Positions 18,481 to 34,085 of a stretch of 64,000 bases of DNA are shown here, one piece after another. The notes below the pieces were generated by a model, which saw only the letters and a list, made by a program, of their open reading frames with translations, did no database searches and was not told where the DNA came from. Each line of letters starts with the position of its first letter. Positions within the stretch are counted from its first letter, which is position 1. Made by a program: the position numbers and the translations under genes. The DNA comes from Clostridia bacterium (GTDB lineage Bacteria > Bacillota > Clostridia > Christensenellales > CAG-138): NCBI GenBank assembly GCA_017438865.1, contig JAFRUN010000058.1, positions 12,833 to 76,832 of the forward strand, written 5' to 3'.

Positions 18481-19443
18481 ATGACGAAAATCGTTTATAA
18501 CGGAGAAACGGATCCGCGTCTGTGCAAAGACGTGATCGGCGCAACGGTCGCTTCGCTCGTCGACGGCGATCCGGACGTGATCTTTCTGGACGCAGACCTG
18601 ATGAGCTGCTCCGGCACGCTGAAATGGTCCAAGACGCATGGCGACCGCGCAATCGATTGCGGCATCGCGGAAGCAAACATGGCGGGCGTCGCGGCAGGTC
18701 TTGCCGCCGCGGGCTTCAAGCCGATCATCCACAGCTTCGGTACGTTCGCCTCGCGCCGCATCTATGACCAGATCTTCCTGTCCGGCGGCTATGCGAAGAA
18801 CGACATCACGGTCATCGGCACCGATCCCGGCGTCACCGCCACGATGAACGGCGGTACGCATATGCCGTTTGAGGACGTCGCGCTCTACAACGCGCTGCCC
18901 CACGCGACCGTGATCGATGCGTCCGATCCGACCTGTCTCGAAAGCGTGCTGCGCCAGTGCGTGAACCGCCCCGGCATCAAATACATCCGCGTCGGCAGAA
19001 AACAGTACGCGAAGATCTATGAGGAAGGCAGCGAGCTTCCGATCGGCAAAGCCGTCACGCTTCGCGAGGGCAAGGACGTCGTGATCTTTGCCGCGGGCAT
19101 CATGCTGCACGAAGCCATGAAGGCGGCGGCTTCCCTCGAAGCGCAGGGCGTTTCCGCCGCGGTCGTCGACTGCTTCACGATCAAGCCGATCGACGCCGAC
19201 GCCGTTGAAGCGTGGGCGAAGAAGTGCGGCGCGGTCGTCGTCGCGGAAAACGCAAACCGCCACGGCGGTCTCTACGACACGATCCTCGAAGTGCTCGCGG
19301 AGCGCTGCCCCATCCCCGCCGCCGTCGTCGCAGTCGAGGACGAGTTCGGTGAGGTCGGCACGCAGGGATACCTGCAGGAGCGCTTCGGTCTGACCGCCGC
19401 GCACATTGAAGAACAGGTCAGATCCGTACTTGCAAGAAAATAA
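18481..19443 (+). CDS. Transketolase, C-terminal (pyrimidine-binding plus C-terminal domain) subunit, copy 1
   Basis: DCGIAEANMAGVAAGLAAAGFKPIIHSFGTFASRRIYDQI. 320 aa, 3 nt after the N-terminal subunit gene. Confidence 0.9.
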   Translation: MTKIVYNGETDPRLCKDVIGATVASLVDGDPDVIFLDADLMSCSGTLKWSKTHGDRAIDCGIAEANMAGVAAGLAAAGFKPIIHSFGTFASRRIYDQIFLSGGYAKNDITVIGTDPGVTATMNGGTHMPFEDVALYNALPHATVIDASDPTCLESVLRQCVNRPGIKYIRVGRKQYAKIYEEGSELPIGKAVTLREGKDVVIFAAGIMLHEAMKAAASLEAQGVSAAVVDCFTIKPIDADAVEAWAKKCGAVVVAENANRHGGLYDTILEVLAERCPIPAAVVAVEDEFGEVGTQGYLQERFGLTAAHIEEQVRSVLARK

Positions 19444-19460: not shown

Positions 19461-20633
19461 ATGGATTACGCAAAAGAATCGCTCCGTCTGCACGGAGAAT
19501 GGAAAGGCAAGATCGAAGTCATCGCAACGGTTCCGGTCGCCACGAAGGAAGACCTGAGTCTTGCTTACACTCCCGGCGTGGCGCAGCCGTGTCTGGAGAT
19601 CCAGAAGGACATCAACAAGAGCTACGAACTGACGCGCCGCCACAACCTCTGTGCCGTCATCACCGACGGCAGCGCGGTCCTCGGTCTCGGCGACATCGGT
19701 CCCGAAGCCGGTATGCCCGTGATGGAAGGCAAATGCGTGCTGTTCAAGTCGTTCGGCAACGTCGACGCGTTCCCGCTTTGCATCAAGACGCATGACGTGG
19801 ACGAGTTCGTCAACGCGGTATATCTGCTCTCCGGCAGCTTCGGCGGCATCAACCTCGAGGACATTTCGGCGCCCCGCTGCTTCGAGATCGAGCGCAAGCT
19901 CAAGGAAAAATGCGACATCCCGATCTTCCATGACGATCAGCACGGCACCGCGGTCATCACGCTCGCGGGGCTCACGAACGCTTTGAAGGTGGTCGGCAAG
20001 AAGAAGGAAGACGTCAAGGTCGTAACAAGCGGCGCAGGCGCGGCGGCGGTCTCGATCGTGAAGCTGCTCCTCTCCGCGGGCTTCAGAAACATCACCATGT
20101 GCGACCGCAAGGGCGCGATCTACAAGGGCCGCGAAGGCCTGAACTGGATCAAGGAGGAGATGGCGGAGGTCACGAACCTCGATCGGAAGCCCGGCACTTT
20201 GGCGGATCAGCTCGTCGGCGCGGACGTGTTCATCGGCGTTTCTGCGCCCGGCACGGTCACGACCGAGATGGTAAAGACCATGAACCGCGACGCGATCGTC
20301 TTTGCCTGCGCGAACCCGACGCCCGAGATCTTCCCGGACGACGCAAAAGCGGGCGGCGCAAAGGTCATCGCAACGGGCAGAAGCGATTATCCGAACCAGA
20401 TCAACAACGTTCTGGCGTTCCCGGGCATCTTCCGCGGCACGTTCGACGTCCGCGCAAGCGACATCAACGAAGAGATGAAGATGGCGGCGGCGAAGGCGCT
20501 TGCCGACCTGATCTCCGATGAAGAGCTCTCCCCGGACTACATCATTCCGAAGGCGTTCGATCCGCGCGTGGGCAAAGCCGTCGCGGCGGCGGTCGCGGAA
20601 GCGGCAAGACGCAGCGGCGTCGCCAGGATCTGA
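19461..20633 (+). CDS. NAD(P)-dependent malic enzyme (short, MaeB-N-type)
   Basis: LSLAYTPGVAQPC, VITDGSAVLGLGDIGPEAGMPVMEGKCVLFK and VVTSGAGAAAVS. 390 aa. Confidence 0.9.
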   Translation: MDYAKESLRLHGEWKGKIEVIATVPVATKEDLSLAYTPGVAQPCLEIQKDINKSYELTRRHNLCAVITDGSAVLGLGDIGPEAGMPVMEGKCVLFKSFGNVDAFPLCIKTHDVDEFVNAVYLLSGSFGGINLEDISAPRCFEIERKLKEKCDIPIFHDDQHGTAVITLAGLTNALKVVGKKKEDVKVVTSGAGAAAVSIVKLLLSAGFRNITMCDRKGAIYKGREGLNWIKEEMAEVTNLDRKPGTLADQLVGADVFIGVSAPGTVTTEMVKTMNRDAIVFACANPTPEIFPDDAKAGGAKVIATGRSDYPNQINNVLAFPGIFRGTFDVRASDINEEMKMAAAKALADLISDEELSPDYIIPKAFDPRVGKAVAAAVAEAARRSGVARI

Positions 20634-20648
20634 TCACACAGGCACACA

Positions 20649-20677
20649 AAAAGCAGGCGGTCACCGCCTGCTTTTTT
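20649..20677. terminator. Bidirectional rho-independent terminator
   Basis: GCAGGCGG-TCA-CCGCCTGC, flanked by an A-run upstream and TTTTTT downstream. It lies between convergent genes. Confidence 0.8.
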
Positions 20678-20686: not shown

Positions 20687-21355
20687 TCAGATCTTCAGCG
20701 TCAGATTTTCGCCCGTGATGCCGACGAACGCGCCCTTTTCCGCCTGCGGGGAATCCGGATGGCACAGAAGCCACTTGTTTTGCATCCAGAGCAGTCCCGC
20801 TTCGCCCGGCGCGGATGTGTCGACCGCGGGGAGAGGCGCATTTGTGCCGCGTTCGAGCACGACGAGACAGTTGAAGCCGGATTCATTGATGCGGCACGGT
20901 GCAAAATGCAGCACGCGCGGGAAAATCTCGACAAGCGTTTCGGGCGGCAGATAAAAGCCCTTGACGTCGCGCGAATCGAGCGTGCGGTCATGCACGTCCG
21001 ATGGCAGCGCGAGCAGCAGCACCAGCCCGGTCGTCGAGTAGTTGACCTCGCTGCACTTGTGGTACTCCTCCGCGTTCAGCGTAAACCCTCTGCCGTTGCA
21101 GAAGCCCGCCTGCACCGGCATGCCGCCGTAAACGGTCCTTCCGACCGTCTGCACGGCGTCGAGCGCTTCGAGCGCCGGTTCCGACGCGACGTAACGGTTC
21201 CCGCCTTCAGGAATGCCGGTCCCTTCCACCGCGTGCGAAAGCGCGTCCGTCCCCTCGCATGCAAGCACCTGTCCGTATGGCGCAAACGCCGGATCCGTCA
21301 CACAGAACAGCGGAAGGTCCGGGTTCTTCCCGCGAAGCCGATCGAGCGTATTCAT
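20687..21355 (-). CDS. DUF4867-like protein (cupin-like; unknown function)
   Basis: 222 aa. The N-terminus ...LFCVTDPAFAPYGQVL and the overall size and composition resemble the DUF4867 family as I remember it. It is the last gene of the tightly coupled sugar operon. Confidence 0.5.
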   Translation of the reverse strand: MNTLDRLRGKNPDLPLFCVTDPAFAPYGQVLACEGTDALSHAVEGTGIPEGGNRYVASEPALEALDAVQTVGRTVYGGMPVQAGFCNGRGFTLNAEEYHKCSEVNYSTTGLVLLLALPSDVHDRTLDSRDVKGFYLPPETLVEIFPRVLHFAPCRINESGFNCLVVLERGTNAPLPAVDTSAPGEAGLLWMQNKWLLCHPDSPQAEKGAFVGITGENLTLKI

Positions 21356-22572
21356 TCGGTCATTCCTCCGTTTTTGTAAAAATGTATCGTATACAGAAGC
21401 GCAGCCGCTTTCTCCTCGAGCCGGCCGTTGAAACGGCTCTTTTCCATCGGAACCGTATGTGCCGCGTCGACGCCGACGTCCGTTTCCGCGGACAGGCGGG
21501 ACAGGAAATACGGATGTTCAAAAATGTCCCCGTACAGAACGATCTTGCCCGGGTCGAACAGATACACGACGCTCTTCAGCGCGTCCGCCAGCGCCTCCGC
21601 CGCACGGTCCGCGATCTTCGCCGCGCCCGCGTCGCCGCCGCGCGCCGCATCCAGCACGAGCGCGGTCGTGACCGCGCCGCGGTTTCCGTTCGCCATCTGA
21701 TAAAGCAGCGGCGTTTCCGTTTCGGAAAAGGCCGCCTGCGCGTCCTCACGGATCGCCGCGGGCGACGCGATCGTTTCGAGACAGCCGGACTTGCCGCAAT
21801 GGCACGGCTTCCCGCCGCGCCGGATCACCGGGATATGCCCGATCTCTGCGCACTGTCTGCGGTCGCCCTCCAGGACTTCGCCGTTGACGGAAAACGCGGC
21901 GCCGATGCCCGTTCCGCAGCGCAGAAAGAACCGGCTCTCCCCCTTGTCGTCGCGCGAGAGAAACATTTGCGCCAGCAACAGCGCGCGAACGTTGTTGGAC
22001 AGCACCGAGGAAAACCCCGTATACGCTTCGAACCGGTCGCAGACCGGAAAATCGGGCGTGTCCAGCGCGTCGAAACTGGTCTTTACGGAGCGTCCGTCCG
22101 CGCCGATCACACCGCGCATCGCAATGCCGAGCCCGAGGATCGTTTTTCGATCGATCCTTTGAAGCTCCAATACCGCAAGCAGCCGTTCGGAAAGCATCCG
22201 GACCGTTTGTTCCGCCGGCGCGCACACCGGCAGCGGCACCGGTTCATAAAAAAGTGTTTCGCCGTCGAGCCGGACGCCCGACAGAATCGCCTGACCGAGA
22301 CCGATCCAAACGCCGAGCGTACAGAATGCGTCCGCATTGAGCCGCAGACGGATCTCCCGCCGTCCCGCGCCGCCCGAAGCAAGCAGACCGTCCTCAAAGA
22401 CAAGCCCTTCACGGATCAGCTCCGCGGCGATCTTCGTCATCGCGGCGGGCGTCAGTCCGAGCATCGATGCAAGGCGTTTTCTCGAGAGACCGCCGTACCG
22501 GTGCAGACACCGCAAAACCGCGGCGCGGTTCTGCCGCTTCAGCCCGATCATGTTGTCGCCTTCGGTTCTCAT
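21352..22572 (-). CDS. ROK-family transcriptional regulator
   Basis: The N-terminal wHTH (NRAAVLRCLHRYGGLSRKRLASMLGLTPAAMTKIAAELIREGLV) is followed by a ROK sugar-kinase-like domain with the zinc motif CHCGKSGCLE. Confidence 0.85.
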   Translation of the reverse strand: MRTEGDNMIGLKRQNRAAVLRCLHRYGGLSRKRLASMLGLTPAAMTKIAAELIREGLVFEDGLLASGGAGRREIRLRLNADAFCTLGVWIGLGQAILSGVRLDGETLFYEPVPLPVCAPAEQTVRMLSERLLAVLELQRIDRKTILGLGIAMRGVIGADGRSVKTSFDALDTPDFPVCDRFEAYTGFSSVLSNNVRALLLAQMFLSRDDKGESRFFLRCGTGIGAAFSVNGEVLEGDRRQCAEIGHIPVIRRGGKPCHCGKSGCLETIASPAAIREDAQAAFSETETPLLYQMANGNRGAVTTALVLDAARGGDAGAAKIADRAAEALADALKSVVYLFDPGKIVLYGDIFEHPYFLSRLSAETDVGVDAAHTVPMEKSRFNGRLEEKAAALLYTIHFYKNGGMTE

Positions 22573-23496
22573 TTACGCGTCCTCCTTTTTCGGTTTCTCC
22601 TCCGGATGCAGTTTCCCGCGCAAGAGGATGATCCCCGCGCCGATCAGTACCACGCCGATGCCGACGAGTTTCCATACCGTCGGTTCCTCTTTGAGAAAGA
22701 GTACACCGACGATGCAGCTCAGAACCGGCATCAAAAGAAGCCAGAGCTTGACAACCCAGACCTCATGGCGTTTGAGATTCCGGTAGTAGAAAAAGTAGAT
22801 CCCGGTCTGCGCAAGTCCGCCCAAAGCCGCCAGCCACCAGAAGCCGGGCGTTTCGGATGGCTTCAGCGCGGCAAGGTCGCCGCGCGATACCGCAAACAGC
22901 GCGAACAGAAGCAGAACGACGAAGTTGTTGTAATACGAGATCGTGTCCGCCTTCCGGTTGTGTTTGTCCTGCGCCGTTTTGATGATGAACGCGTTTGCCG
23001 TGACGCACGCCGCGCTCGCGAGAAAGAACAGATCCGTCGGGCGGAAGGTCAGCGCGGAAAAGTCCAGTCCGAGCACGAGCAGCACGCCGAACAGCATCAG
23101 AATGCTGCCGATCCAGTCCGTCGCGTACAGACGCTTGCGGTAAATCGCCACCGTCAGCAGGTTTACCATCAGCACGTCGGTTTTCAGAAGCGCCGTTCCG
23201 GTGCCGAGCGAGCCGCCCGCGGCGTAGCCGAGGTTTGCGAACAGGTCCAGAAGGAAGCCGAACACGCCGATGATCACAAGGATCACCGTCGCTCTCCCCT
23301 GCCGGAAAAGGTCTTTGAAACCGCCGGTCACGGCAAGCTGCACGGTGAGGAAGACGAGCGCCGCCGCGCGCAGCAGAAAGCCCGCCGCGTACGGGGAGTT
23401 CGTCACGTCCACCATGTATTTGCTGACCGCGTAGTAGATCGTCCACGCGATCACCATGCCGGCGATCATGCCGACGTCCTTCAAACGACCTTTCAT
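22573..23496 (-). CDS. DMT-superfamily (EamA-like) transporter; candidate product exporter
   Basis: 307 aa, 10 predicted TM segments, two EamA-type halves. Confidence 0.75.
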   Translation of the reverse strand: MKGRLKDVGMIAGMVIAWTIYYAVSKYMVDVTNSPYAAGFLLRAAALVFLTVQLAVTGGFKDLFRQGRATVILVIIGVFGFLLDLFANLGYAAGGSLGTGTALLKTDVLMVNLLTVAIYRKRLYATDWIGSILMLFGVLLVLGLDFSALTFRPTDLFFLASAACVTANAFIIKTAQDKHNRKADTISYYNNFVVLLLFALFAVSRGDLAALKPSETPGFWWLAALGGLAQTGIYFFYYRNLKRHEVWVVKLWLLLMPVLSCIVGVLFLKEEPTVWKLVGIGVVLIGAGIILLRGKLHPEEKPKKEDA

Positions 23497-24590
23497 TTCA
23501 GCGCTTCAAACATATTCCGCAGCGCAGCTTCATCCATCGCCACGGGATTGTTCCGCATCAGCGGGTGCTTCGCCGCGTCGCGGCAGAGCTTGTCCATATC
23601 CACCTCGCCGAGATCGGCAAGCGTCATTCGGAGACCGGCGAGCTTTTTCAGCGTCTTGATGCGTTCGGCAAGCTCTTCCGTGCCGGACAGCCCCGCCTTT
23701 TTGCAGAGCGTTTCCAGCCGCTCGTCGGCGTTGATGCGCACGAAGCTGTCGAGCGTGAACGCGCACGCCTCGCCGTGCGGCAGATGATAATCCTCGGACA
23801 GCGGATAGCTGCACGCATGGCTGCCCGCGGTCTTGGGAAGCGCAAAGCTCATGCCGCCGAGCAGTGCCGCAAGCGACATGTTTTCGCGCGCAGCAAGGTT
23901 CGATCCGTCGCGGTACGCCGTTTCGAGGTTTTCGAGCACGAGACGGACCGCTTCGATCGCGCAGAGGTCGGAGATCGGCTGATGGTTTTTGCTCCAGTAT
24001 CCTTCGAGCGCATGCGCCATCGCGTCGAGACCGGTGTTCATCGTCGTGCGCGGCGGCACGGTCAGCGTCAGCTCGGGATCGACGATCGCCAGCGTCGGCA
24101 TAAAGACCGGATCGTTGATCGTCTTTTTCTCCCTGCCGCAGCTGATGACCGAGACCTGCGTGACCTCGCTGCCGGTACCCGCGGTGGTCGGCACCGCGAT
24201 CATCGGAAAACGCGTTTTGGGGAACGGAATCCCGCCCCGAAAGCACGCAAGCGCGTCGGCGTTTTCCCGCGCGATCGCCGCCGTGAACTTCGCCGTATCC
24301 ATCGTGCTGCCGCCGCCGATACCGACGACCGCGTCCGCATGCGTTTCGCGGACGAGCTTCGCCGCTTCGATCACGCCGCGAAGCTGCGGGTTTTCTTCCA
24401 CATCGGAAAAGACCGCGGCGATCTCGGGGATCTCCTTTTGCATCGCTTCAACGGCCGGGCGCAAAAACCGGTCGCACACGACCAGGCAGCGCGTCGCGCC
24501 GATCGAACGGATCTCCCCGCCGAGCGAGCGGATGCTGCCGCAGCCGAAGCGGATCTTGACCGGCTGCCGGTACAAAAACTCAAGCGCCAT
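23493..24590 (-). CDS. Iron-containing (group III) alcohol dehydrogenase; candidate aldehyde reductase of the pathway
   Basis: AVVGIGGGSTMDTAKF (GGGS NAD motif), and metal ligands in ...GLDAMAHALE... and ...SHACSYPL...HGEAC. The start is set at the internal ATG 24590 (MALEFLYRQP). Confidence 0.85.
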   Translation of the reverse strand: MALEFLYRQPVKIRFGCGSIRSLGGEIRSIGATRCLVVCDRFLRPAVEAMQKEIPEIAAVFSDVEENPQLRGVIEAAKLVRETHADAVVGIGGGSTMDTAKFTAAIARENADALACFRGGIPFPKTRFPMIAVPTTAGTGSEVTQVSVISCGREKKTINDPVFMPTLAIVDPELTLTVPPRTTMNTGLDAMAHALEGYWSKNHQPISDLCAIEAVRLVLENLETAYRDGSNLAARENMSLAALLGGMSFALPKTAGSHACSYPLSEDYHLPHGEACAFTLDSFVRINADERLETLCKKAGLSGTEELAERIKTLKKLAGLRMTLADLGEVDMDKLCRDAAKHPLMRNNPVAMDEAALRNMFEALK

Positions 24591-25056
24591 AGATCCCGTC
24601 CTCGATCTTTTTGACCTCAGCGGCAAACTTATGCATATTCACCGCGCGCCAGTCCTCCAGGTCCTGACACCATTCGGTAGCAAGGAACGTCCTGACCATC
24701 TCGATCGCCATTTCGGGACCGACGATCCATCCGCCCATGCACAGCACGTTCGCATTGTTGATCGCGCGCGCCATCTTGGCGGAATAAACGCCCTCGCACG
24801 CGACGGCGTGAACGCCCCTGAACTTGTTCGACACCACACACATTCCCGCGCCGGTGCCGCAGATCAGGATCGCCTTTTCATAGGTCCCGTTCTGCACGAG
24901 CGGCGCAACGTCGCCCGCGACGCGGTAGTAGGGATGCACGTCGTTCAGATCGACGGTGCCGAGATCGTCGAATCCGATCCCCGCTTCGCAAAGATACGCC
25001 TTGACCGCTTCCTTGACGGCAAAGCCGGACTTATCGCTTCCGATTGCAAGTTTCAT
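24580..25056 (-). CDS. rpiB: RpiB/LacAB-family sugar(-phosphate) aldose-ketose isomerase
   Basis: MKLAIGSDKSGF...AILICGTGAGMCVVSNKFRGVHAV...NANVLCMGG. 158 aa. Confidence 0.85.
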   Translation of the reverse strand: MKLAIGSDKSGFAVKEAVKAYLCEAGIGFDDLGTVDLNDVHPYYRVAGDVAPLVQNGTYEKAILICGTGAGMCVVSNKFRGVHAVACEGVYSAKMARAINNANVLCMGGWIVGPEMAIEMVRTFLATEWCQDLEDWRAVNMHKFAAEVKKIEDGIYGA

Positions 25057-25071
25057 GGTTTTTATCCTCCC

Positions 25072-26001
25072 TTATTTGAGCGTGACCGCACGTTTTGCGG
25101 TTTTGATGATGTTTTCAACGGTCAGTCCCGTAACTTCGCGAAGATACGGGAGCTTGCCGACCTCGCCGAACCGGTCCCGAATGCCGACGGCGCAGACCGG
25201 GATCTTTTCCTCTGCAAGCGCCTCGAGCACCGCGGAATGCAGTCCGCCGATGACGTTGTGGTTCTCGACCGTCAGCACAGCGCCGGTCTTTTTCGCCGAC
25301 GCGAGCACCGCTTCGCGGTCGATCGGCTTGATCGTGTGCACGTTCAGCACGTCGCAGGAGACGCCCTCCGCTTTCAGCGCGTCCGCCGCGTCCAGCACGT
25401 CTTTGATCAGCATGCCGGAAACGAAGATCGAAAGGTCCGTTCCCTCGCGCAAGACGTCCGCCTTGAACAGATCGAAGGTATAGTCTTCGGGGAACACCGT
25501 CGGCAGCTCCTTCCGGAACAGACGCACATAAACCGCGCCGTAATAATCGTTCAGCGCCGGCATCGCCGCTTTCAGCTGCACGCCGTCGACCGGCTCGAAA
25601 ATGACCATCCCCGGGATCGAGCGCAGAACGCCGATGTCCTCCATGCTCATGTGTGTTCCGCCGTTGAGCTCTGCGGAGATACCAGGATCGGTGCCGATGA
25701 TCTTCACGTTCTGCTTTGCGTACGCGATCGAGATCGCGATCTGGTCGCAGATGCGGCGGGACGCAAACGGCGTAAAGCTCTCGATCCACGGCTTGAACCC
25801 GTAACTAGAAAGCCCCGCCGCGATCGACGCCATGTTCTGTTCGGCGACGCCGCAGTCAAAGATCCGATCCGAAAAGCGCTCGCGCAGCTTGATCGTGCCG
25901 CTCGCCTTCGCAAGGTCCGCGTCCAGCAGCACGATGTGCCGGTCGGCTTCCATCAGTTTTGCGAGACATTCCGCATAAATCGCTCTCATTTCCATGTTCA
26001 T
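25072..26001 (-). CDS. Transketolase, C-terminal subunit, copy 2 (pathway-associated)
   Basis: DCGVAEQNMASIAAGLSSYGFKPWIESFTPFASRRICDQI. 309 aa, with a 4-nt overlap with the N-terminal subunit gene. Confidence 0.9.
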   Translation of the reverse strand: MNMEMRAIYAECLAKLMEADRHIVLLDADLAKASGTIKLRERFSDRIFDCGVAEQNMASIAAGLSSYGFKPWIESFTPFASRRICDQIAISIAYAKQNVKIIGTDPGISAELNGGTHMSMEDIGVLRSIPGMVIFEPVDGVQLKAAMPALNDYYGAVYVRLFRKELPTVFPEDYTFDLFKADVLREGTDLSIFVSGMLIKDVLDAADALKAEGVSCDVLNVHTIKPIDREAVLASAKKTGAVLTVENHNVIGGLHSAVLEALAEEKIPVCAVGIRDRFGEVGKLPYLREVTGLTVENIIKTAKRAVTLK

Positions 26002-26870
26002 GCCTCCCCTCTCAAATCACGGATCGCCGCTTCCGCCTGCTCCATCGTGAGGTTCGTGTTGTGATTTCCGGTGCCGAGATCCTCGATCCACTTGACGCCG
26101 CAGCCCTTCCTGGTGTTCAGGATCACCATCGTGGGCTTTCCGGAACCGATCCCGAGCTTCGCATGCCCGACCGCCGCCTGCACCTGCTCGATATCGTTGC
26201 CGTCCTCGACGTCGATCACGTTCCAGCCGAACGCCGCCCATTTTTCACCGAGCGGCGCGATGTCGTTGACTTCCGCGACCGTGCCGTCGATCTGCAGTTT
26301 GTTGTAATCGGTAAACGCGATCAGGTTGTCGAGCTTCTTTGCCGCCGCGAACATCGCCGCTTCCCAGATCTGTCCCTCCTGGCTTTCGCCGTCGCCGATC
26401 AGCGTATAGATCGTCGCGCCGTCGTTTTCGAGCTTGCTGCCCAGCGCCGCGCCGACCGCGCAGGAAAAGCCCTGTCCCAGAGATCCCGTCGTCATGTCGA
26501 CGCCGATCGTGCGGTTCATGTCGCAATGGCTCGGCAGGTTCGTGCCGCCGCGGTTCAGCGTCAGAAGCTCCTTTTTGTCGAAATAGCCGCGGTTTGCGAG
26601 CGCTGCGTAAACCGCCGGACCTGCGTGTCCCTTGGAGCAGATAAAGCGGTCGCGTCCCGCTTTTTTCGGCTCCTTCGGATCGACGTTCATTTCCTCAAAA
26701 TACAGAACCGTCAGCAGCTCGACGACCGACAGACAGCCGCCGATATGCCCGACGCCGAGGTTTCCGATGCTCATCAGTACGTCGCAGCGAATATCCTTTG
26801 CAATTTCCTTCAAATCCGTTTTCAAGTCCCTGTTCTCCTCTATTTGATTAAATTTGTTAACCAATTTCAT
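25998..26870 (-). CDS. Transketolase, N-terminal subunit, copy 2 (pathway-associated)
   Basis: VGHIGGCLS, SKGHAGPAVYA, GSLGQG and GDGESQEGQIWE. The start is taken as ATG 26870 (MKLVNKF...). The TTG at 26897 offered by the track coincides with a TTGACA box. Confidence 0.85.
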   Translation of the reverse strand: MKLVNKFNQIEENRDLKTDLKEIAKDIRCDVLMSIGNLGVGHIGGCLSVVELLTVLYFEEMNVDPKEPKKAGRDRFICSKGHAGPAVYAALANRGYFDKKELLTLNRGGTNLPSHCDMNRTIGVDMTTGSLGQGFSCAVGAALGSKLENDGATIYTLIGDGESQEGQIWEAAMFAAAKKLDNLIAFTDYNKLQIDGTVAEVNDIAPLGEKWAAFGWNVIDVEDGNDIEQVQAAVGHAKLGIGSGKPTMVILNTRKGCGVKWIEDLGTGNHNTNLTMEQAEAAIRDLRGEA

Positions 26871-26907
26871 TTTATCCGCGCATGCCGCGATTGTCAAGGG
26901 AAAAACA

Positions 26908-26936
26908 TTGACTTTTTACGGTGTTTGGATTATGAT
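26908..26936 (+). promoter_or_regulatory. Promoter of the isomerase / PNP-like operon
   Basis: TTGACT-17 nt-TATGAT in the divergent intergenic region, about 39 nt upstream of ATG 26975. Confidence 0.5.
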
Positions 26937-26974
26937 TGATTAAAAATATGAAATAATACGGAGGACGGTATTTC

Positions 26975-28312
26975 ATGAAGGAGTTTACCCCTGTATACGT
27001 TCCGGTCGGCGTGCCGACGTTCCATATGGAAAGTGCGCAGGACGCGTTTATCCGCTCGTGCACGGTTTTGAAAGCGCTCGATCCGCGCTTCGTCTGCCCT
27101 GCCGAAAAACTGCTTTCGATCGACGCGCTCAAAGCATATCTGGAACCGCTCGATCCCGACCTGATCGTCTTTCAGAATCTGACGTTTGCAAACGCCGCCT
27201 ATATGTCCGAAGTGCTGCGCAAATTCAACTGTCCCGTCGTTCTGTGGACGCTCCGCGAGCCGGTGATCGACGGCGGGCGGCTGCGGCTGAACTCGCTGAC
27301 CGGCGCGTACTCCGCGGCAAACACGCTGCGCGCGTTCAACCGGTCTTTCTTCTATACCTTCGGCGCGCCGGAGGAAGACTCCCTGAAGTGTGATCTTCGC
27401 GATCTGCTCACGGCGGCAAAGCTCAGGCATGCGATGCGTTCGCTGAAGATCGCGGCGATCGGACACACGCCGCAGGGCTTCGGGTTCGGGCGCGCGCTCG
27501 ACGGCGAGATGATGAATACCTTCGGCGCGGAACTCGTTTCGATCGAGGCGCGTGAACTCATTGACCGCGCGAAGGGCTATACGGACGGGGAATGTGCGCC
27601 GTATCTGGAAAAAACCGCCTGCATAACCTGCGGGTTCGACAAAACGCCCGAAAAGAACCGGCTTGACCACGCGCGGCTCTATAAGGCGTACAGCGATTTC
27701 ATTGCCGAGAACGGCGTCGGCGCGCTTGCGTCGCGCTGCTGGCCGGACTTCTTCACCGCGTTCGGCACACCGGTCTGCACGGTGCTGTCCATGCTGAACG
27801 ACGACGGCGTCGCCGCCGCCTGCGAAGCGGATATCTACGGCGCGCTGTCCATGTGGGCGGGCATGCAGATTTCCGGCTCCCCCGTCTTTTTCGGCGATCC
27901 GGTCTCTCTGGACGAGGGGGAAAACACGATCACCTTCTGGCACTGCGGGGCGGCGGCGTGCTCGCTCGCCAGAAAGGACACCGGCGCGGTCGTCGGCGTA
28001 CACCCGAACCGCAAAATCGGTCCCGCGATGGATTTCGGCTGCGAAGCGTTCCCGGATGCAACGATCTTCCGCATCGGCAGAGAGCCGGACGGCAAGTTCC
28101 GCTTCTTTCTCTGCGAAGGCGCGGCGCTTTCAAAGCCGAAGCAGTTCACCGGCACAAGCATCGTGATCCAGACCGACAATCCTGCGAAGGGGATCGTCAT
28201 GGACAGCGTGTGCAAGGGGTTTGAGCCGCACTTTGTCGTGATCAAAGGACGCCATGCCGGTACGCTGGAAGCGCTTGCGGGCTTTCTCGGGCTGCCGGTC
28301 TGCCGGTATTGA
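26975..28312 (+). CDS. L-fucose/L-arabinose-isomerase-family sugar isomerase (short form, unknown specificity)
   Basis: 445 aa. N-terminal Rossmann-like swivel domain, and ...GVAAACEADIYGALSMW... matching the conserved CEAD/E-x-x-GA catalytic block of this superfamily. Confidence 0.7.
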   Translation: MKEFTPVYVPVGVPTFHMESAQDAFIRSCTVLKALDPRFVCPAEKLLSIDALKAYLEPLDPDLIVFQNLTFANAAYMSEVLRKFNCPVVLWTLREPVIDGGRLRLNSLTGAYSAANTLRAFNRSFFYTFGAPEEDSLKCDLRDLLTAAKLRHAMRSLKIAAIGHTPQGFGFGRALDGEMMNTFGAELVSIEARELIDRAKGYTDGECAPYLEKTACITCGFDKTPEKNRLDHARLYKAYSDFIAENGVGALASRCWPDFFTAFGTPVCTVLSMLNDDGVAAACEADIYGALSMWAGMQISGSPVFFGDPVSLDEGENTITFWHCGAAACSLARKDTGAVVGVHPNRKIGPAMDFGCEAFPDATIFRIGREPDGKFRFFLCEGAALSKPKQFTGTSIVIQTDNPAKGIVMDSVCKGFEPHFVVIKGRHAGTLEALAGFLGLPVCRY

Positions 28313-28314
28313 GT

Positions 28315-29064
28315 ATGATTACGGATTCATTTGACAACAAAAGCGAACCGCTGTTCACCGTCGAATCGTTCGCCGGCCCGCAGAAGCACCTTTGCGACGT
28401 CTGCATCCTGACGTTCTCCGACGTGATTCTGGAAGAGATGCGAACACGCTTTGCGCTGCGTGAAGTCGGATACAAGAAGAACGTCAACGGCAACCGTCCG
28501 ATCTACCTGTTTGAATCCGGCGGAAAAACGCTCGCGACAACGCTCTGCGGCGTCGGCGCCACGCTTGCGGGCGGCGATATCGAGGAGCTCAACTGGCTCG
28601 TCGGCGCAACGAAGTTCGTCATGTTCGGCTCGGCGGGTTCCCTGAACCGCGAAGCGACCGTCGGCAGGTATGTGATCCCGACGGAGGCGTACCGCGACGA
28701 GGGCATGTCCTATCACTACGCCCCGCCTGCGGACTATATCGCGGTGAAAAACGCGGACCGCGTCGAGGCGATCTTCCGGGAGCTCGGCCTCCCGTACGTT
28801 TCGGGACGCGTATGGACGACCGACGCGTTCTACCGCGAAACGCGGAATCAGTTTGAAAAGCGCAAAACGGAGGGCTGTCTTGCGGTTGAAATGGAGGTCG
28901 CGGGCGTCGAGGCGGTCTGCGACTTTTACGGCTTCGAGCTCTATGATTTTCTCGTCACCGGCGACGTGCTCGACGCGCCGGTCTATGAAAACGACGGACT
29001 GCACGGCGCCAACCACGATCTCGACAAGCTCGATATCGCTTTGGAGATCGCAGGACGGATCTGA
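28315..29064 (+). CDS. PNP/UDP-family (NP-I, DeoD/Udp-like) nucleoside phosphorylase homologue
   Basis: CGVGATLAGGDIEELNWLVGATKFVMFGSAGSL, VWTTDAFYRE and LAVEMEVAGV align with the phosphate-, ribose- and base-binding blocks of hexameric nucleoside phosphorylases. The ATG is 3 nt after the isomerase stop. Confidence 0.65.
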   Translation: MITDSFDNKSEPLFTVESFAGPQKHLCDVCILTFSDVILEEMRTRFALREVGYKKNVNGNRPIYLFESGGKTLATTLCGVGATLAGGDIEELNWLVGATKFVMFGSAGSLNREATVGRYVIPTEAYRDEGMSYHYAPPADYIAVKNADRVEAIFRELGLPYVSGRVWTTDAFYRETRNQFEKRKTEGCLAVEMEVAGVEAVCDFYGFELYDFLVTGDVLDAPVYENDGLHGANHDLDKLDIALEIAGRI

Positions 29065-29074
29065 AAAAGCACAC

Positions 29075-29108
29075 AAAAACGGCACGGTTTCGACCGTGCC
29101 GTTTTGTA
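29075..29108. terminator. Bidirectional rho-independent terminator
   Basis: ACGGCACGGT-TTCG-ACCGTGCCGT (10-bp stem) flanked by AAAAA and TTTT, between convergent genes. Confidence 0.85.
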
Positions 29109-29117
29109 TTCCGGAAA

Positions 29118-30569
29118 CTACGCCGCCGCGTTTTCCTCGCGCAGGATCTTTTCTTTTTCGACCTGAAGCTCTTGAACGCGCTTCTTGGAAAGCGGATAGA
29201 CAAACCGCAGGAACACGAACAGCAGCAGGAACAGAACTGCGGGGATCAGCACGGATGCATTATACATGGTGAGCAAGTTCTCGTCCGTGATGTTTTCGAC
29301 CAGAAGACGTCCGCCGTCATAACCGATAATGAGAAGCGGGATGTTAATCAAAATCGTCGCTACCGTTTGACCGAGCTTTCTTGTGAATGTGAAGAATGCG
29401 TAGCTCGTTGCGTCGTCGTCGATGCCGTAGGTCACGCGGTTAAAGTCGATCGCGTCCGCCGCAAGGATCCAGTTCAGCAGGAACATGAACGCCGTGCCGA
29501 TTCCGCCCATCAGACAGCCGAACAGATACAGCCAGATGTTCCGGATATTGAAGACGGAAAGAATGAACAGGATCAGATAGCATACTGCCGAGAACAGCAC
29601 GCCGTAGGAGCAGATCTCGCGGCGGCCGAACCGGTTGCCGAGCTTGGAAGCAAAGAACATGATAAACGCCACAGGCAGATACTGGAACACGGCAGGCAGA
29701 ATGTTCAGCGCGGGCTTATGAAAGTAACAGTTAAACAGATACAGGTTGTAGCCCTGTCCGAACATTTGTGCTGCCAGCAAAAGCATGGACGCGATGGATA
29801 CCGCCATGAACGGCCGGCTCTTCAAGAGTGAGCGGATGACCTTTTTCGCCTCGCCCTTCTGCTTCGGTGCAGGATGCGAAACGACGCGTTCCTTCGTCAT
29901 TTTGTGGCAGAGGAAGAAGAAAACGACGGACAGTGCCGCAATCACGCAGACGCCGATCAGCACCACCGTCGGCTTAATCGTCGTGATCTTGATATCCTTG
30001 ATGACGAGCGGCTGACCGTTTTCCATAACCGGCTGATAGCAGATCATGGCAAGGACCATCGCGGGCAGCCCTCCGATGACCGATCCGATCGAACGGAACA
30101 CGGATAGCGTCGAGCGCTCCTTGTCGTCCGAGGTGATGACCTGCGCCATCGAACCGTACGGAATGTTGATGCACGTATAGAGCATTCCGAACAGCACATA
30201 GGTGAAGAACGCCCAGATATACCGTGCGACGGTCGGAAGTCCGCCGACGTTCAGGAACATCAGAATTGCGGCGATTGCCACCGGGACCGCGAAGACTTTG
30301 ATCCAATGACGGTAGCGTCCGTCGGGACGCGCCTTTGCGCCCTGAATGATGCGTCCCCAGATCGGGTCGTTGACCGCATCCCAAAGGCGTGCGATGACGA
30401 TGATGATGAGCGTACCGAGCGCGCTGATTTTGAGAACGTCCGTATAGAACGAATTCAGAATCCCCGCCGTCAGACCGAACACCAGACAGCTTGCGAGATC
30501 GCCGAACGCGTAGCCGATCTTGTCCTTCATTTTGATCCCGCTGGTACGGGAAATGTAAGACTCCTCCAT
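29118..30569 (-). CDS. Glycoside-pentoside-hexuronide (GPH):cation symporter family transporter
   Basis: KIGYAFGDLASCLVFG...IARLWDAVNDPIWGRI is the GPH signature (MelB/YihO/YihP-like). 483 aa, 12 TM segments. RBS GGAGGAG lies 5 nt upstream. Confidence 0.85.
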   Translation of the reverse strand: MEESYISRTSGIKMKDKIGYAFGDLASCLVFGLTAGILNSFYTDVLKISALGTLIIIVIARLWDAVNDPIWGRIIQGAKARPDGRYRHWIKVFAVPVAIAAILMFLNVGGLPTVARYIWAFFTYVLFGMLYTCINIPYGSMAQVITSDDKERSTLSVFRSIGSVIGGLPAMVLAMICYQPVMENGQPLVIKDIKITTIKPTVVLIGVCVIAALSVVFFFLCHKMTKERVVSHPAPKQKGEAKKVIRSLLKSRPFMAVSIASMLLLAAQMFGQGYNLYLFNCYFHKPALNILPAVFQYLPVAFIMFFASKLGNRFGRREICSYGVLFSAVCYLILFILSVFNIRNIWLYLFGCLMGGIGTAFMFLLNWILAADAIDFNRVTYGIDDDATSYAFFTFTRKLGQTVATILINIPLLIIGYDGGRLLVENITDENLLTMYNASVLIPAVLFLLLFVFLRFVYPLSKKRVQELQVEKEKILREENAAA

Positions 30570-30586
30570 TGTTTCTCCTCCGTTTT

Positions 30587-32566
30587 TTATTTGTTTTCAT
30601 CCGCAGTTTTGCGGAACAGTTCCGAGTATTCGCTTCCCTTGCGGTAAAACACAGGCGTCTGCCCGAGCGGCGCGGGCACGGTATAATCCGCGTCCCCCGC
30701 GTATTCCCTGCCGGACCAGAAGCCGATCCACTCGCCCGCAGGCAGGGATACCCTGCGCGTCTTTGCGTGCAGCTTGATCACCGGGCAGACGAACAGGTCC
30801 TCGCCGAACAGGTAGCTGTACGCGTCGCGGTTCTTTTGGAAATCCATCGCTTCGTAGAAATCCGGGCGCATGGCGGGAAGCCCCGCTTTTGCAAGCGCCT
30901 CGCAATGCCTGATATACGGTTTCAGCGCGGCGTGTATCTTCGTGAGCCGGACCGTGTGCGCCTTGACCTCCGGCGCGTCGAACTGCGCGTTCGCCCACGG
31001 ACGGATCGATTCGTGGCTGCGCATCAGAAGCGAGAATGTGCACATCTCCATCCAGCGCGTAAACAGCTCCGGCCTGCGCTTCATCTTGCCGAACGAGAAG
31101 AACCCGCCGACGTCGCAATGCACCATCGGCACGCCTGAGAAGCCCAGCGAGAAGCTCGCAGGCATCACGCACGGCATGCCGTAGTCCTTCGTGGTATCGG
31201 TGTGCTGGTCGCCGTTCCACAGCACCGGCGCGTAGGTCTGGATCCCGACGTAACCGGAGCGCATAAAGAACATGACGTCCTTTGCGCCGTACTCCTCGAC
31301 CGCCTCGCGGTTCAGCTTCGCCCACAGCACCGGCCAGAGGTTGTGCAGCTCCTTCGGATCGCCGTCACGGAGTACGCAGTCGACCGGCAGATATTCGCCG
31401 AAGTCCGCCATCCAGCCGGACACGCCGAGATCGAGCATGTTCTTTTTGATCAGCACGTCCTTGGTGAAACGCACCGCTTCGGGGTTTGTGAGATCGAGCA
31501 TGCCCGCGTCGAACGTGGTGGACTTGATATGATAGACGCTGCCGTCCGTATGCGTGATCAGATAGCCCTTGTCCCTGCATTCGTTGTAGAGCCGGCTGTC
31601 CTTCACGAGATACGGATTGATGTACGCAAGGAAGCGCACGCCGCGTTCGTTGAGCTTTTGAATGGCGCTCTTCAGATCGGGATACAGCGTTTCGTCGACT
31701 TCCCAGTTCCAGTAGACCTGCTTTCCCATGACCGTGCGGTTTTCGCCGGACCAGTCCTGACTCCAAACGCCCGCGATCTTCGCGCCCGCGTCGAGCATGG
31801 CGAACGTCTTTTCGAGGACCGTCTGCGTACCGCCCTGAATGCCGAGGATCATGCCGTCGAAGCACCAGTCGGGCAGATACTGCCGGTTTTCGACGCGCGC
31901 CGCGTACGCGGTCAGAAGCGCGTCGAAGCTGTCGCCGAACGTGACCGCGAGCGATTTCGGGCAGGCGTCGAAAACGAACGTATACGCGTCTTTCCCGAAG
32001 GTCGATTTGCCGTCGGATGCGGTGTCGAACCGGATCATCCGCCCGCGGTCGGTCACGAAAACCGGCATCGGCGCATAGCTGCCGATCTTTTTGTGCGGTT
32101 TCGGCGCGTACAGCGCGCGCGGCAGAAGCGCCTTCTCGATGATCGTCGCCGCTTTGATATGCTCCGAAACGAAGTTCACGACCGTTTCGCCGCGCAGATT
32201 CGTCTTGCGGTACTGCTCGCCGCCGCCGAACACCGCTTCGTTTTCGATTGCCGGAAGCCGGAATTCATACGCCCAGCCGTCCTCGCCGGAAAGCGCAAGC
32301 CGGACGCCGTCCGGCAGTTCGGAAACGGCGACCGAAACGCTGTGTCCTTTTGCCGAAAACGTCAGCCCGCCGCCGGTTTCGGACACGTCGGCAAGCGGGA
32401 CGCGCTCGACTTCCGTCACGCGTTCCTTCACCGTGCCGCGGTTGGCTTCATACGTTTTTTCACGGCGGATCGCCGTTATGAAAGGAAGATCGGAAGAATG
32501 GACGAAAACCTGCCGATCGCCGAAAGAAAATGTCCGGCGCCCGGATTCAACACTTGAAAACAGCAT
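30587..32566 (-). CDS. GH31 alpha-glycosidase of the YihQ (sulfoquinovosidase) subfamily; substrate uncertain
   Basis: It is collinear with E. coli YihQ as I recall it: LPDW..DG..LGIQGG, QDWSG......GK.V.WNW, FLAYINPY, GWMADFGEYLP (nucleophile Asp) and W.GDQ (acid/base Asp). The start is moved to the second ATG (32566, RBS GAGGGG) because the first ATG overlaps a TATCAT -10 box. Confidence 0.85.
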   Translation of the reverse strand: MLFSSVESGRRTFSFGDRQVFVHSSDLPFITAIRREKTYEANRGTVKERVTEVERVPLADVSETGGGLTFSAKGHSVSVAVSELPDGVRLALSGEDGWAYEFRLPAIENEAVFGGGEQYRKTNLRGETVVNFVSEHIKAATIIEKALLPRALYAPKPHKKIGSYAPMPVFVTDRGRMIRFDTASDGKSTFGKDAYTFVFDACPKSLAVTFGDSFDALLTAYAARVENRQYLPDWCFDGMILGIQGGTQTVLEKTFAMLDAGAKIAGVWSQDWSGENRTVMGKQVYWNWEVDETLYPDLKSAIQKLNERGVRFLAYINPYLVKDSRLYNECRDKGYLITHTDGSVYHIKSTTFDAGMLDLTNPEAVRFTKDVLIKKNMLDLGVSGWMADFGEYLPVDCVLRDGDPKELHNLWPVLWAKLNREAVEEYGAKDVMFFMRSGYVGIQTYAPVLWNGDQHTDTTKDYGMPCVMPASFSLGFSGVPMVHCDVGGFFSFGKMKRRPELFTRWMEMCTFSLLMRSHESIRPWANAQFDAPEVKAHTVRLTKIHAALKPYIRHCEALAKAGLPAMRPDFYEAMDFQKNRDAYSYLFGEDLFVCPVIKLHAKTRRVSLPAGEWIGFWSGREYAGDADYTVPAPLGQTPVFYRKGSEYSELFRKTADENK

Positions 32567-32654
32567 AGCATCCCCTCTGCATACCCTTTTTTTCATGATA
32601 CAGGAAAAGCCCGTGCCGTGTCAAGCATTGACCGGACGGGCTTTTGCGAAAACG

Positions 32655-34085
32655 TCAGTATCCGAGCGCAATGCCGAGCGCGAGGAACGCGACGACCAGC
32701 GCAAGATTCACAAGAAAGAGCGGCACGCTCTTCTTCACCCACTTGAAATAGTCGATCCCGATCATCGAAAGCGAGATCAGAAGAACCGGCGACGTCGGGA
32801 ACAGCACGTTCGTATAGCCGTCGGCAAAGGTGTAGATCAGAACGAGCATCTGCTTAGAAAGCGGCACGCTGACCACCGCAAGCATTCCCATGACGAGGAT
32901 CGCCTTCGCCGTCGAGGACGAAATAAAGAACTCGAGCACGAGAATGATCGCGTACAGCACGAGCGCGACGAGGAACGGACTGTGCCCCGAAACAAGCGTG
33001 TTGATCGAATGCACGATCGTCGGCATGATCGCGCCCTCGTCGAAGATGTACTTGATCGAAGACGCCAGCGCAATGAACACAATCGTCGGCAGCGCGCCCA
33101 CGATCCCCTTCCAGAAGCTCAGAAACACCGGCTTTGCCGCCTTTGCGGAAAGGAAGCCCGCAAGGAGTCCGAAGATCAAAAAGTACGCGATCAGCACGAC
33201 CACGGTATAATCGCGCAGCGCGGAAATCGCGGAACACGCGATGATCAGCCCGAGACAGACGAGCAGAAATACGATATAAGTCAGCCGGATGCGCTTTTCG
33301 TCCTGCGGCGCGATCGGATTCTGTTCATCCGCCGCGCCCGCCTCGCGCAGCGTTTCATCGTGCGCAAGCGTCAGACTCGACGCCGGATCCTTTCTGAGCT
33401 TTTTAACGTACAGGAAGACGAACCCGAGCAGCAGCAGGTACATCACGGCAAAGATGATCACGCGGTACCAGATGTTTTCCATCGGGTTCGCGTCGATGAT
33501 CTCGGATGCGAGCAGGACCGTGAACGGATTGGTGATCGCGCTTGCGAAGCCGAAGCCGCAGGCGATGATGCAGACGAGAAATCCCGTGAACGAGTCGTAC
33601 CCGATCAGCACGCACAGCGCGGTCACGATCGGCAGCATCGAAAGCATCTCCTCGAACAGTCCGAGGAACGCGCCGAACGCCATAAACACCAGCGCGACCA
33701 TGCACAGAAGCAGCGCGCGCCGCTTCCGGAACCGTCTTGCAACGGCGCCGACCAGCGCGCGGATGCCGCCGACGTCGTTCATCACCTGAAACGCCGCAAA
33801 CACCATGACAAGGAACAGCGACAGCATGATCAGCGTCAGACCGTTGTCCGAGCCGAACACAAGGAACGGCGCCAGAAGTCCCTTCCAGACCGGAATGCCC
33901 TTCGCGCCCTCGACGGCCCGATAGTCCAGATAATCCGTTTTCCCGTCCGCGGTCGTGCCGAATTCGCCCTTCGGGATCACATACGTCAGCACGATGGCGA
34001 CGAGCATCAGTACGAACAGCAGAACGACGACCTGAATAAATGTTTTGGTCGACAGATTCACGAGTGTTTTATTCTCTTTCTTCAT
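32655..34085 (-). CDS. YfcC-family (DcuC-like) membrane transporter
   Basis: 476-aa polytopic protein whose N-terminus (...TFIQVVVLLFVLMLVAIVLTYVIPKGEF...) and overall layout are typical of YfcC-family putative amino-acid/carboxylate carriers. Confidence 0.7.
   Translation of the reverse strand: MKKENKTLVNLSTKTFIQVVVLLFVLMLVAIVLTYVIPKGEFGTTADGKTDYLDYRAVEGAKGIPVWKGLLAPFLVFGSDNGLTLIMLSLFLVMVFAAFQVMNDVGGIRALVGAVARRFRKRRALLLCMVALVFMAFGAFLGLFEEMLSMLPIVTALCVLIGYDSFTGFLVCIIACGFGFASAITNPFTVLLASEIIDANPMENIWYRVIIFAVMYLLLLGFVFLYVKKLRKDPASSLTLAHDETLREAGAADEQNPIAPQDEKRIRLTYIVFLLVCLGLIIACSAISALRDYTVVVLIAYFLIFGLLAGFLSAKAAKPVFLSFWKGIVGALPTIVFIALASSIKYIFDEGAIMPTIVHSINTLVSGHSPFLVALVLYAIILVLEFFISSSTAKAILVMGMLAVVSVPLSKQMLVLIYTFADGYTNVLFPTSPVLLISLSMIGIDYFKWVKKSVPLFLVNLALVVAFLALGIALGY

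Follow-up and report, generated by a model that had tools for sequence, protein, structure and literature searches.

A locus of eleven genes in the 64,000-nucleotide stretch of DNA analysed here (the window, from contig JAFRUN010000058.1 of an uncultured rumen Clostridia bacterium) is best read, from its gene content, residue motifs and gene order, as a predicted reductive sulfoglycolytic transketolase (sulfo-TK) pathway that would turn sulfoquinovose (SQ) into isethionate, a reading to which we assign a probability of about 0.8. SQ is among the most abundant organosulfur compounds, and its breakdown in the rumen supplies isethionate to sulfide-producing bacteria. Loci of this kind are not new, the pathway having been described in 2021 and clusters from rumen Oscillospiraceae in 2025-26, and as a further example of a pathway common in rumen Oscillospiraceae the locus adds little alone. 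The point worth following up is its glycosidase, which belongs to a branch of the YihQ family that lacks the arginine of the sulfonate-binding pocket.

The sulfo-TK route, as reviewed in PMC9594981, starts with the isomerase SqvD/SftI, possibly acting with the DUF4867 protein SqvB/SftX, continues with the split transketolase (TK) SqwGH on sulfofructose (SF) and with the isomerase SqwI, and, after a second use of SqwGH on sulfoerythrulose, ends with the iron-type alcohol dehydrogenase (Fe-ADH) SqwF, which yields isethionate for export. Every enzyme class of this published route is present at the locus, as judged by Pfam and NCBIfam profile searches of the open reading frames (ORFs) of the window, and a split transketolase is clustered there with a FucI-family isomerase in the company of no SF kinase, aldolase or transaldolase. 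Both databases were likewise silent on kinase, aldolase and transaldolase domains anywhere between 17 and 36 kb, as the original prediction had claimed from the letters alone; all the genes that it had listed were found at their coordinates and in the families that it had named. By homology and context, a GPH symporter would import SQ or an SQ-glycoside, from which a glycosidase of family GH31 would free SQ, the sulfonate being bound by Gln283, Trp286 and a Lys348/Thr350 loop. The SftI-like isomerase, possibly with the DUF4867 cupin, would then give 6-deoxy-6-sulfofructose, and the split transketolase would transfer C1-C2 of this ketose to glyceraldehyde-3-phosphate, producing xylulose-5-phosphate and 4-deoxy-4-sulfoerythrose. 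Once an RpiB-like isomerase had converted the latter into the ketose, the same transketolase would act again to release a second xylulose-5-phosphate together with sulfoacetaldehyde, which the Fe-ADH would reduce to isethionate at the expense of NADH, and an EamA/DMT membrane protein would carry the isethionate out of the cell. No isethionate lyase was found in the window, and the sulfonate product would therefore be excreted.

At the level of the central enzyme, the transketolase is encoded as two subunits on the minus strand. The SqwG-like, thiamine pyrophosphate-binding subunit (TK-N, 25998-26825; Pfam Transketolase_N, 4e-45) retains H26, H66, H100, D155, N185 and H261 (Escherichia coli numbering), leaving its cofactor-binding and catalytic residues intact. 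The SqwH-like subunit (TK-C, 25072-26001; Pfam Transket_pyr and Transketolase_C) carries the head-group motif described for SF transketolases: in the enzymes of Faecalicatena and Clostridium sp. MSTE9, RAFDR stands in place of RSFHR, the motif that orients the phosphate (Borusak et al., PMC11659671). Alignment with E. coli TktA and the split transketolase of C. hydrogenoformans identifies the corresponding residues of the window protein as R6, A33, F76, D105 and R163, that is, RAFDR, and of the 81 TK-C sequences obtained from related loci 73 have the same motif. In three otherwise orthologous clusters (L074, L075 and L085) the TK-C gene, at about 8.0 kb, encodes KSFDR instead, which means that the SF-transketolase motif as published varies among these clusters. 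It was also observed that a second split transketolase, missing from the original prediction, adjoins the locus on the plus strand (17617-19443). It shares 48% identity with the locus enzyme in the N subunit and 44% in the C subunit, and its head-group motif, KCFDR, is neither the canonical RSFHR nor RAFDR. A malic enzyme gene (19461-20633, plus strand), equally missing from that prediction, follows it. The two were rejected as conserved parts of the locus, since among the genomes compared only the four nearest ones (L001, L007, L010 and L016) have them.

The first step of the predicted pathway falls to a FucI-family aldose-ketose isomerase (26975-28312, plus strand), for which an SftI/SqvD-like conversion of SQ into sulfofructose is predicted. 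Its likeness to SftI stands in one respect and falls short in another: the SQ isomerase model NF048012 (SftI) is its only NCBIfam match and covers the full length, yet the score of 363 bits does not reach the equivalog cut-off of 700. Isomerases from loci with a canonical YihQ score similarly against the same model (400 bits). No solved structure was matched by this SftI-like family at E <0.01. Identical copies of the gene occur on several metagenome contigs, and the protein is 99% identical to one from the rumen metagenome-assembled genome (MAG) RUG13758, labelled 'uncultured Clostridiales bacterium' (L007). The candidate isomerase for 4-deoxy-4-sulfoerythrose/-erythrulose is an SqwI-like protein of the RpiB/LacAB family (24580-25056, minus strand; PF02502 LacAB_rpiB, 1e-39), which scores under the RpiB equivalog cut-offs and gives a 97-bit match to the NCBIfam erythrulose-4-phosphate isomerase; its gene lies 15 nt downstream of TK-C, and this position after the transketolase genes is kept in related loci. 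So is the operon position of the SqwF-like Fe-ADH (23493-24590, minus strand; Pfam Fe-ADH, PF00465, and ADH_Fe_C), the candidate sulfoacetaldehyde reductase that would form isethionate. Against the Bilophila SarD model this protein scores 173 bits with a cut-off of 700, and it is not an equivalog. On one metagenome contig otherwise identical to the window, gene calling divided the Fe-ADH gene into segments of 128 and 219 aa (L001:6519-7616); the split is a frameshift or an assembly error, and the window gene is intact. The expectation that a DUF4867 (SftX) protein belongs to the locus was borne out by an SftX/SqvB-like cupin (20687-21355, minus strand; PF16161, 7e-65, 219 bits) that matches Bacillus megaterium SqvB (PDB 9GYY, E 4e-46).

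Transport at the locus would be provided by two membrane proteins. The candidate importer of SQ or SQ-glycerol is a glycoside:cation symporter of the GPH (MFS_2) family (29118-30569, minus strand; Pfam MFS_2, 2e-66), 26% identical to both YihO and YihP of E. coli. The candidate isethionate exporter is an EamA/DMT protein with two repeats (22573-23496, minus strand; Pfam EamA, 2e-25), whose gene is kept between the Fe-ADH and ROK genes in most related loci. SqwE, the exporter of the known pathway, is a sulfite/sulfonate transporter of the TauE type (PMC12890257); no TauE domain was detected in the locus by Pfam, and the EamA/DMT protein fills the exporter slot.

The recurrence of this gene set in other genomes was assessed by a genome scan with an SftI alignment, which returned 80 loci, all of them in Clostridia MAGs from rumen or gut that bear the labels Oscillospiraceae, Ruminococcaceae, Ca. 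Limivicinus or Christensenellales. The core of TK-N, TK-C, RpiB, Fe-ADH and DMT genes, usually with those for ROK and DUF4867, is arranged divergently from sftI at 64-93% identity in about 70 rumen loci, and 30 of these loci carry a canonical YihQ with an Arg-Trp-Tyr (R-W-Y) pocket. In rumen microcosms, SQ is converted to isethionate while Ca. Limivicinus, Caproiciproducens and a Sphaerochaetaceae species transcribe sqwGHI (Krasenbrink et al., PMC13219744), and the same work reports SQ-dependent growth or induction together with isethionate for related rumen taxa and for Caproiciproducens KNHs216. Taken together, the complete set of enzyme classes, the RAFDR motif of TK-C, the isomerase that matches SftI only, the SqvB match and the recurrence of the core support the sulfo-TK interpretation that had been offered for this locus.

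The glycosidase of the locus is a GH31 protein of the YihQ family (30587-32566, minus strand). It exceeds the cut-off of the NCBIfam model PRK10426 (607 against 553 bits), shows full-length homology to E. coli YihQ at 37% identity and matches the solved sulfoquinovosidases 8R56, 5AED, 5OHS and 6PNR with E values of 1e-123 to 1e-129. Both catalytic residues are kept, D388 corresponding to the nucleophile Asp405 and D453 to the acid/base Asp472 (YihQ numbering), as are Trp304, Gln262, Gln288 and His537. In sulfoquinovosidases the sulfonate is bound in a pocket made of Arg301, Trp304 and Tyr508 (the Q/E-RWY motif), and all four solved enzymes are of this R-W-Y type. In the window protein the pocket reads Gln283-Trp286-Phe489, with Arg301 replaced by Gln and Tyr508 by Phe. 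Its description as a 'YihQ-subfamily' enzyme stood at the level of the profile model and not at that of the sulfonate-binding residues, two of the three being replaced. Further changes concern position 366, where Asp/Glu gives way to Lys (K348), position 368, where Gly gives way to Thr (T350), and the gain of Phe at 491, 495, 508, 509 and 511 and of Tyr at 481. Judged by sequence, the Phe residues gained near position 508 are also compatible with a lipid aglycone or with a substituent of lower polarity.

The GH31 proteins of the related loci split into two clades that differ in pocket and in neighbours. Clade A, to which the window protein belongs, comprises 41 sequences, one of them partial (L058), and these always lie beside a GPH symporter. 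Their pocket is Q-W-F in all 40 sequences that reach position 508, L058 ending before it, and the catalytic Asp405/Asp472 pair is kept in 40 of the 41, L058 again ending before Asp472. Clade B comprises 31 sequences, also with one partial, and has R-W-Y in the 30 complete ones; in the two loci checked its neighbours are a DUF624 gene and an ABC importer. Both clades are found around a single core operon in L057, L074, L082 and L086. Position 366 is Asp in 30 of 30 clade B proteins (loop YLFDFGE) and Lys in 37 of 41 clade A proteins (loop YHIKSTT), in which Thr replaces Gly at 368. Across the family, the change of Arg301 to Gln covaries most strongly with this 366-369 loop, and a cation moved from 301 to 366 would explain how sulfonate binding could be retained.

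The Arg-less pocket is by no means confined to the loci related to the window. In a survey of 140 YihQ-family representatives at the 50% identity level, 56 had Q-W-Y pockets, 40 R-W-Y and 15 Q-W-F, and a neighbor-joining tree placed the window protein with the Q-W-F and then with the Q-W-Y proteins, not with R-W-Y. Some of these relatives occur in other sulfoglycolytic contexts. In L096 the sole glycosidase is a Q-W-Y GH31, and the cluster around it encodes a TauE exporter, a transaldolase, a YihU-like reductase, an SftI-like isomerase, a GPH symporter and DUF4867; in L101 a Q-W-Y protein accompanies a transaldolase, SuyAB-like SAF and GD_AH proteins, a LarA-like protein, an aldehyde dehydrogenase, an SftI-like isomerase, ABC proteins and a lipase; in L097 another lies with an RAFDR transketolase, RpiB, SftI-like and DUF4867 genes; and in L099 a Q-W-F protein is found with SftI-like, Fe-ADH and GPH genes. 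It is because such Arg-less relatives sit in other clearly sulfoglycolytic clusters that the window GH31 is probably, as far as sequence can tell, an unrecognised variant of sulfoquinovosidase. Sulfonate recognition by other means has precedents: the pocket of sulfolactaldehyde reductase has no direct Arg contact, and the GH31 enzyme SqgH of Alteromonas macleodii (Nat Commun 2025, PMC12780224) is active as a sulfoquinovosidase although it has no Q/E-RWY motif. No description of the Gln-type YihQ branch was found in the literature searched.

Two of these relatives deserve a comment of their own. The cluster in L101 (1-13312) is of the sulfo-transaldolase type, its lipase, of the PAF-AH/PETase type, could be a sulfolipase, and it would unite SQ breakdown and desulfonation in one organism. 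In L097 (1-13644), which also has a ROK gene, the Fe-ADH and the exporter give way to a GFO/IDH/MocA oxidoreductase, an AP_endonuc_2 protein, an ABC importer, the Q-W-Y GH31 and a glycerate-kinase-like gene; the cluster may represent a form of the transketolase route not yet described.

The eleven genes are organised in three transcription units. The seven-gene operon on the minus strand has junctions with overlaps of 4, 11, 4 and 4 nt, one abutment of 0 nt and one gap of 15 nt that contains a ribosome-binding site (RBS) and precedes the RpiB gene, a geometry that makes the earlier label 'translationally coupled' a fair one. Its proposed extent, 26870 to 20687, was right about the genes and probably wrong about the start. 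A longer TK-N ORF does begin at ATG 26870, but the -10 hexamer of the promoter overlaps that codon, the RBS GAGGAG precedes a TTG at 26825, and translation from this TTG gives 275 aa, in keeping with orthologues of 275-276 aa; for these reasons TTG 26825 is probably the true start. The isomerase and a PNP_UDP_1 gene form a plus-strand pair divergent from this operon, and the GH31-GPH pair, on the minus strand, converges on them. Three sigma-70-like promoters, matching the consensus at 10-11 of 12 positions, were located exactly in the three intergenic regions: TTGACA-17-TAAAAT for the TK operon (26869-26897, minus strand), TTGACT-17-TATGAT for sftI-PNP (26908-26936, plus strand) and TTGACA-18-TATCAT for GH31-GPH (32595-32624, minus strand), the last within the terminator hairpin of the upstream DcuC gene. 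The divergent TTGACA pair of the TK and sftI promoters is kept across related loci. Two strong bidirectional terminators bound the units, one at 29076-29105, a 13-bp stem followed by a T-run, which ends both sftI-PNP and GH31-GPH, and the other at 20648-20676, which ends the TK operon and the convergent malic-enzyme gene.

Regulation of the locus may depend on a NagC/Mlc-like protein of the ROK family (21352-22572, minus strand), in which Pfam finds an N-terminal winged helix-turn-helix (MarR/HTH_24) and a ROK domain, and whose best NCBIfam matches, NagC with 163 bits and Mlc with 137 bits, lie above the ROK kinase models. ROK regulators are also found in L096, L097 and L089. A 21-bp dyad, TTGATTAAATTTGTTAACCAA, with one mismatch, lies in the leader of the TK operon (26844-26864) and is proposed as a candidate ROK operator; a second, weaker copy with three mismatches (26936-26956) overlaps the -10 hexamer and leader of sftI. 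The pattern TTGATTAA-N5-TTAATCAA, allowing up to three mismatches, occurs twice in the 64-kb window, compared with 0.12 occurrences expected. The half-site TTGATTAAA (up to one mismatch) precedes sftI in many of the related loci, and in some of them an inverted partner follows it at a distance of about 12 nt; TGATTGATTAAA, at the second copy, is kept in close loci. A ROK repressor probably controls both divergent operons through a dyad in each leader. The pattern scan of the window detected no copy upstream of GH31-GPH, and the idea of an operator shared with this pair was rejected. The exporter candidate, which is not orthologous to SqwE, and the candidate operator add to what is known of such clusters in ordinary but testable ways.

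Several observations weigh against the sulfo-TK reading. The isomerase scores far under the equivalog cut-off of SftI, no model of a characterised sulfoacetaldehyde reductase in NCBIfam comes close to the Fe-ADH, and the exporter candidate belongs to a different family from SqwE. The GH31 lacks two of the three sulfonate binders, Arg301 and Tyr508, that are present in every solved sulfoquinovosidase (5AED, 5OHS, 6PNR and 8R56). Moreover, the specificity of RAFDR is not established, with KCFDR in the neighbouring paralogue and KSFDR in three orthologous clusters. Some of these points find a place in readings that assign the locus, or its glycosidase, a different substrate.

It could be argued that the sulfo-TK core serves free SQ and that GH31-GPH is a functionally separate module for uptake and hydrolysis of an alpha-glycoside, merely adjacent to it. 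The pair does have its own promoter, no 21-bp dyad precedes it, the GH31 does not show the sulfonate signature, and two Q-type relatives have only a GPH neighbour, with no visible sulfoglycolysis genes (one further relative lies in an unrelated context). The genomic associations make this quite unlikely, since linkage of the GH31/GPH pair to the core recurs across 40 loci and in several arrangements, six of these loci have the clade A GH31 immediately after sftI in the same orientation, and relatives are the sole glycosidase inside sulfo-transaldolase clusters.

A second alternative would have the same enzymes process a non-sulfonated sugar, such as a 6-deoxyglucoside (quinovoside) or another 6-substituted glucoside, with a reduced C2 product leaving the cell, and would take the Arg-less, more aromatic pocket of the GH31 as the reflection of an uncharged substituent. 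Besides the residues lost and gained in that pocket, the exporter of a type other than TauE and the isomerase score well under the SftI cut-off speak for it, and an earlier study placed a small set of DUF4867 neighbourhoods with the same Pfam families under 'pentose phosphate pathway'. It is nevertheless very unlikely. The core is orthologous (64-93%) to that of loci with a canonical R-W-Y YihQ, four loci hold both glycosidases, and TK-C retains both head-group arginines, R6 and R163. A dedicated exporter would hardly be sensible for ethanol, Q-type GH31s are present in clusters with sulfonate-specific TauE or SuyAB-like genes, and the exchange of Asp/Glu for Lys at 366 supplies a replacement cation. 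Finally, an ordinary non-oxidative pentose-phosphate or sugar-phosphate cluster of RpiB, transketolase and alcohol dehydrogenase, which the generic family names (transketolase, ribose-5-phosphate isomerase B, alpha-glucosidase) would suggest, is hardly credible given the lack of a kinase or phosphotransferase system component to make the sugar phosphate, the RAFDR rather than RSFHR head group, the RpiB-like protein under the RpiB equivalog cut-offs and the linkage to SftI-like, DUF4867 and YihQ-family genes across some 70 genomes.

Within the sulfo-TK reading, the consequences of the unusual glycosidase extend beyond this locus. We give about an even chance to the proposal that the whole Q-W-Y/Q-W-F branch, including the Q-W-F GH31 of the window with the GPH symporter beside it, forms a second, Arg-free class of sulfoquinovosidases, which would retain the sulfonate by means of Gln, Trp and the Lys/Thr loop (366 and 368). 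On a rarer reading, the substrate of the Arg-less branch would be another 6-substituted glucoside, channelled into the same core pathway. The Arg is absent from the glycosidases of about half of those related rumen clusters in which one is seen, and from many YihQ-family representatives; in the lineage of the window the Tyr is absent as well. If the proposal is true, the R-W-Y hallmark is too narrow and overlooks a large share of SQ-glycoside degraders, and genomes with both GH31 types would divide the task between two SQ-glycosides or two uptake routes. Should the branch be active on SQ-glycosides, residue- and primer-based surveys of SQ degraders would need revision, and Arg-free sulfonate recognition in GH31 would become directly testable.

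As for the remaining genes in and around the locus, the nucleoside-phosphorylase-family gene PNP_UDP_1 (28315-29064, plus strand; Pfam 9e-25) begins 3 nt after sftI. Its membership in the pathway was rejected as unproven, for it adjoins sftI only in the closest lineage; a homologue 67% identical lies elsewhere beside an acetyltransferase and a radical-SAM gene, an unrelated context, and the gene is probably a passenger. A DcuC-family anaerobic carrier and a VTT-domain/acyltransferase fusion (32655-35922, minus strand) form an operon with its own promoter (36010-35982), whose terminal hairpin contains the -35 box of the GH31 promoter. They were rejected as parts of the locus on account of that promoter and of the terminator hairpin that precedes the GH31 promoter, and they are kept only in close relatives. 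Further away, the region 39430-52652 contains lysine-fermentation genes (beta-keto acid cleavage enzyme, lysine 2,3-aminomutase, and the alpha and beta subunits of lysine 5,6-aminomutase) and butyrate genes (acyl-CoA dehydrogenase, ETF and 3-hydroxyacyl-CoA dehydrogenase), interrupted by an Mrr-type restriction endonuclease gene (46792-47799) in a segment whose G+C content is lowered to 0.51, as against about 0.60. A citrate lyase alpha subunit (CitF) is encoded at 57616-59022 on the plus strand. At the other end, a capsule/exopolysaccharide cluster (990-13820), in which G+C falls to 0.44 at 2-4 kb, encodes a MurJ-like flippase, LicD, GT2, Wzy, a TupA-like ATP-grasp protein, GT4, a priming sugar transferase, LytR-CpsA-Psr, a CpsB/tyrosine kinase and Wzz. 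The lysine-fermentation, butyrate, citrate lyase and capsule genes fit an anaerobic fermenter.

One of the known systems closest to the locus is the reductive sulfo-TK cluster that Liu et al. (2021) described in Clostridium sp. MSTE9, which comprises SqvD, SqvB, SqwGH, SqwI, SqwF, SqwE, YihQ and an ABC importer (accessions EJF39089, 39090, 39099 and 39103 for SqwG, SqwH, SqwI and SqwF). By gene families and motif, the locus shares with it the FucI-family isomerase, DUF4867, the RAFDR split transketolase, the RpiB-family isomerase, the Fe-ADH and the YihQ-family GH31, and it likewise has no kinase or aldolase and isethionate as the predicted product. The two differ in the importer, an ABC system in MSTE9 and a GPH symporter in the window; in the exporter, the TauE-type SqwE in MSTE9 and an EamA/DMT candidate in the window; and in the GH31 pocket, R/W/Y in the archetype and Q/W/F here. 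Unlike MSTE9, the window also has a PNP_UDP_1 gene appended to sftI. The regulator at the window locus belongs to the ROK family, the 21-bp dyad being its candidate operator. The same habitat and core genes are shared with the rumen sulfo-TK clusters of Ca. Limivicinus, Caproiciproducens and Neosphaerochaeta (Krasenbrink et al., ISME J 2026, PMC13219744), and genomes labelled Ca. Limivicinus are among those with loci related to the window. According to that study, 35.5% of 313 Ca. Limivicinus genomes encode the sulfo-TK pathway, and yihQ forms multiple distinct clades, some species having two copies. Active-site residues are not discussed there, and the present analysis resolves an R-W-Y/ABC and a Q-W-F/GPH clade, the lineage of the window having, within the sequence seen, only the latter type.

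With regard to the glycosidase, the YihQ-type sulfoquinovosidases of GH31 subfamily 13, represented by E. coli YihQ (5AED), the Agrobacterium tumefaciens enzyme (5OHS) and Eubacterium rectale SftG (6PNR), share with the window GH31 full-length homology, at E values of 1e-126 to 1e-129, and the catalytic Asp pair and differ from it at positions 301, 508, 366 and 368. SqgH (PMC12780224), as a GH31 sulfoquinovosidase devoid of the RWY residues, offers a precedent for the window enzyme, but it was rejected as its closest relative: it is about 28% identical to YihQ, falls with GH31_3 and serves a sulfo-SDO pathway in marine Gammaproteobacteria, whereas the window GH31 belongs to the YihQ family, above the PRK10426 cut-off, and to an anaerobic Firmicute.

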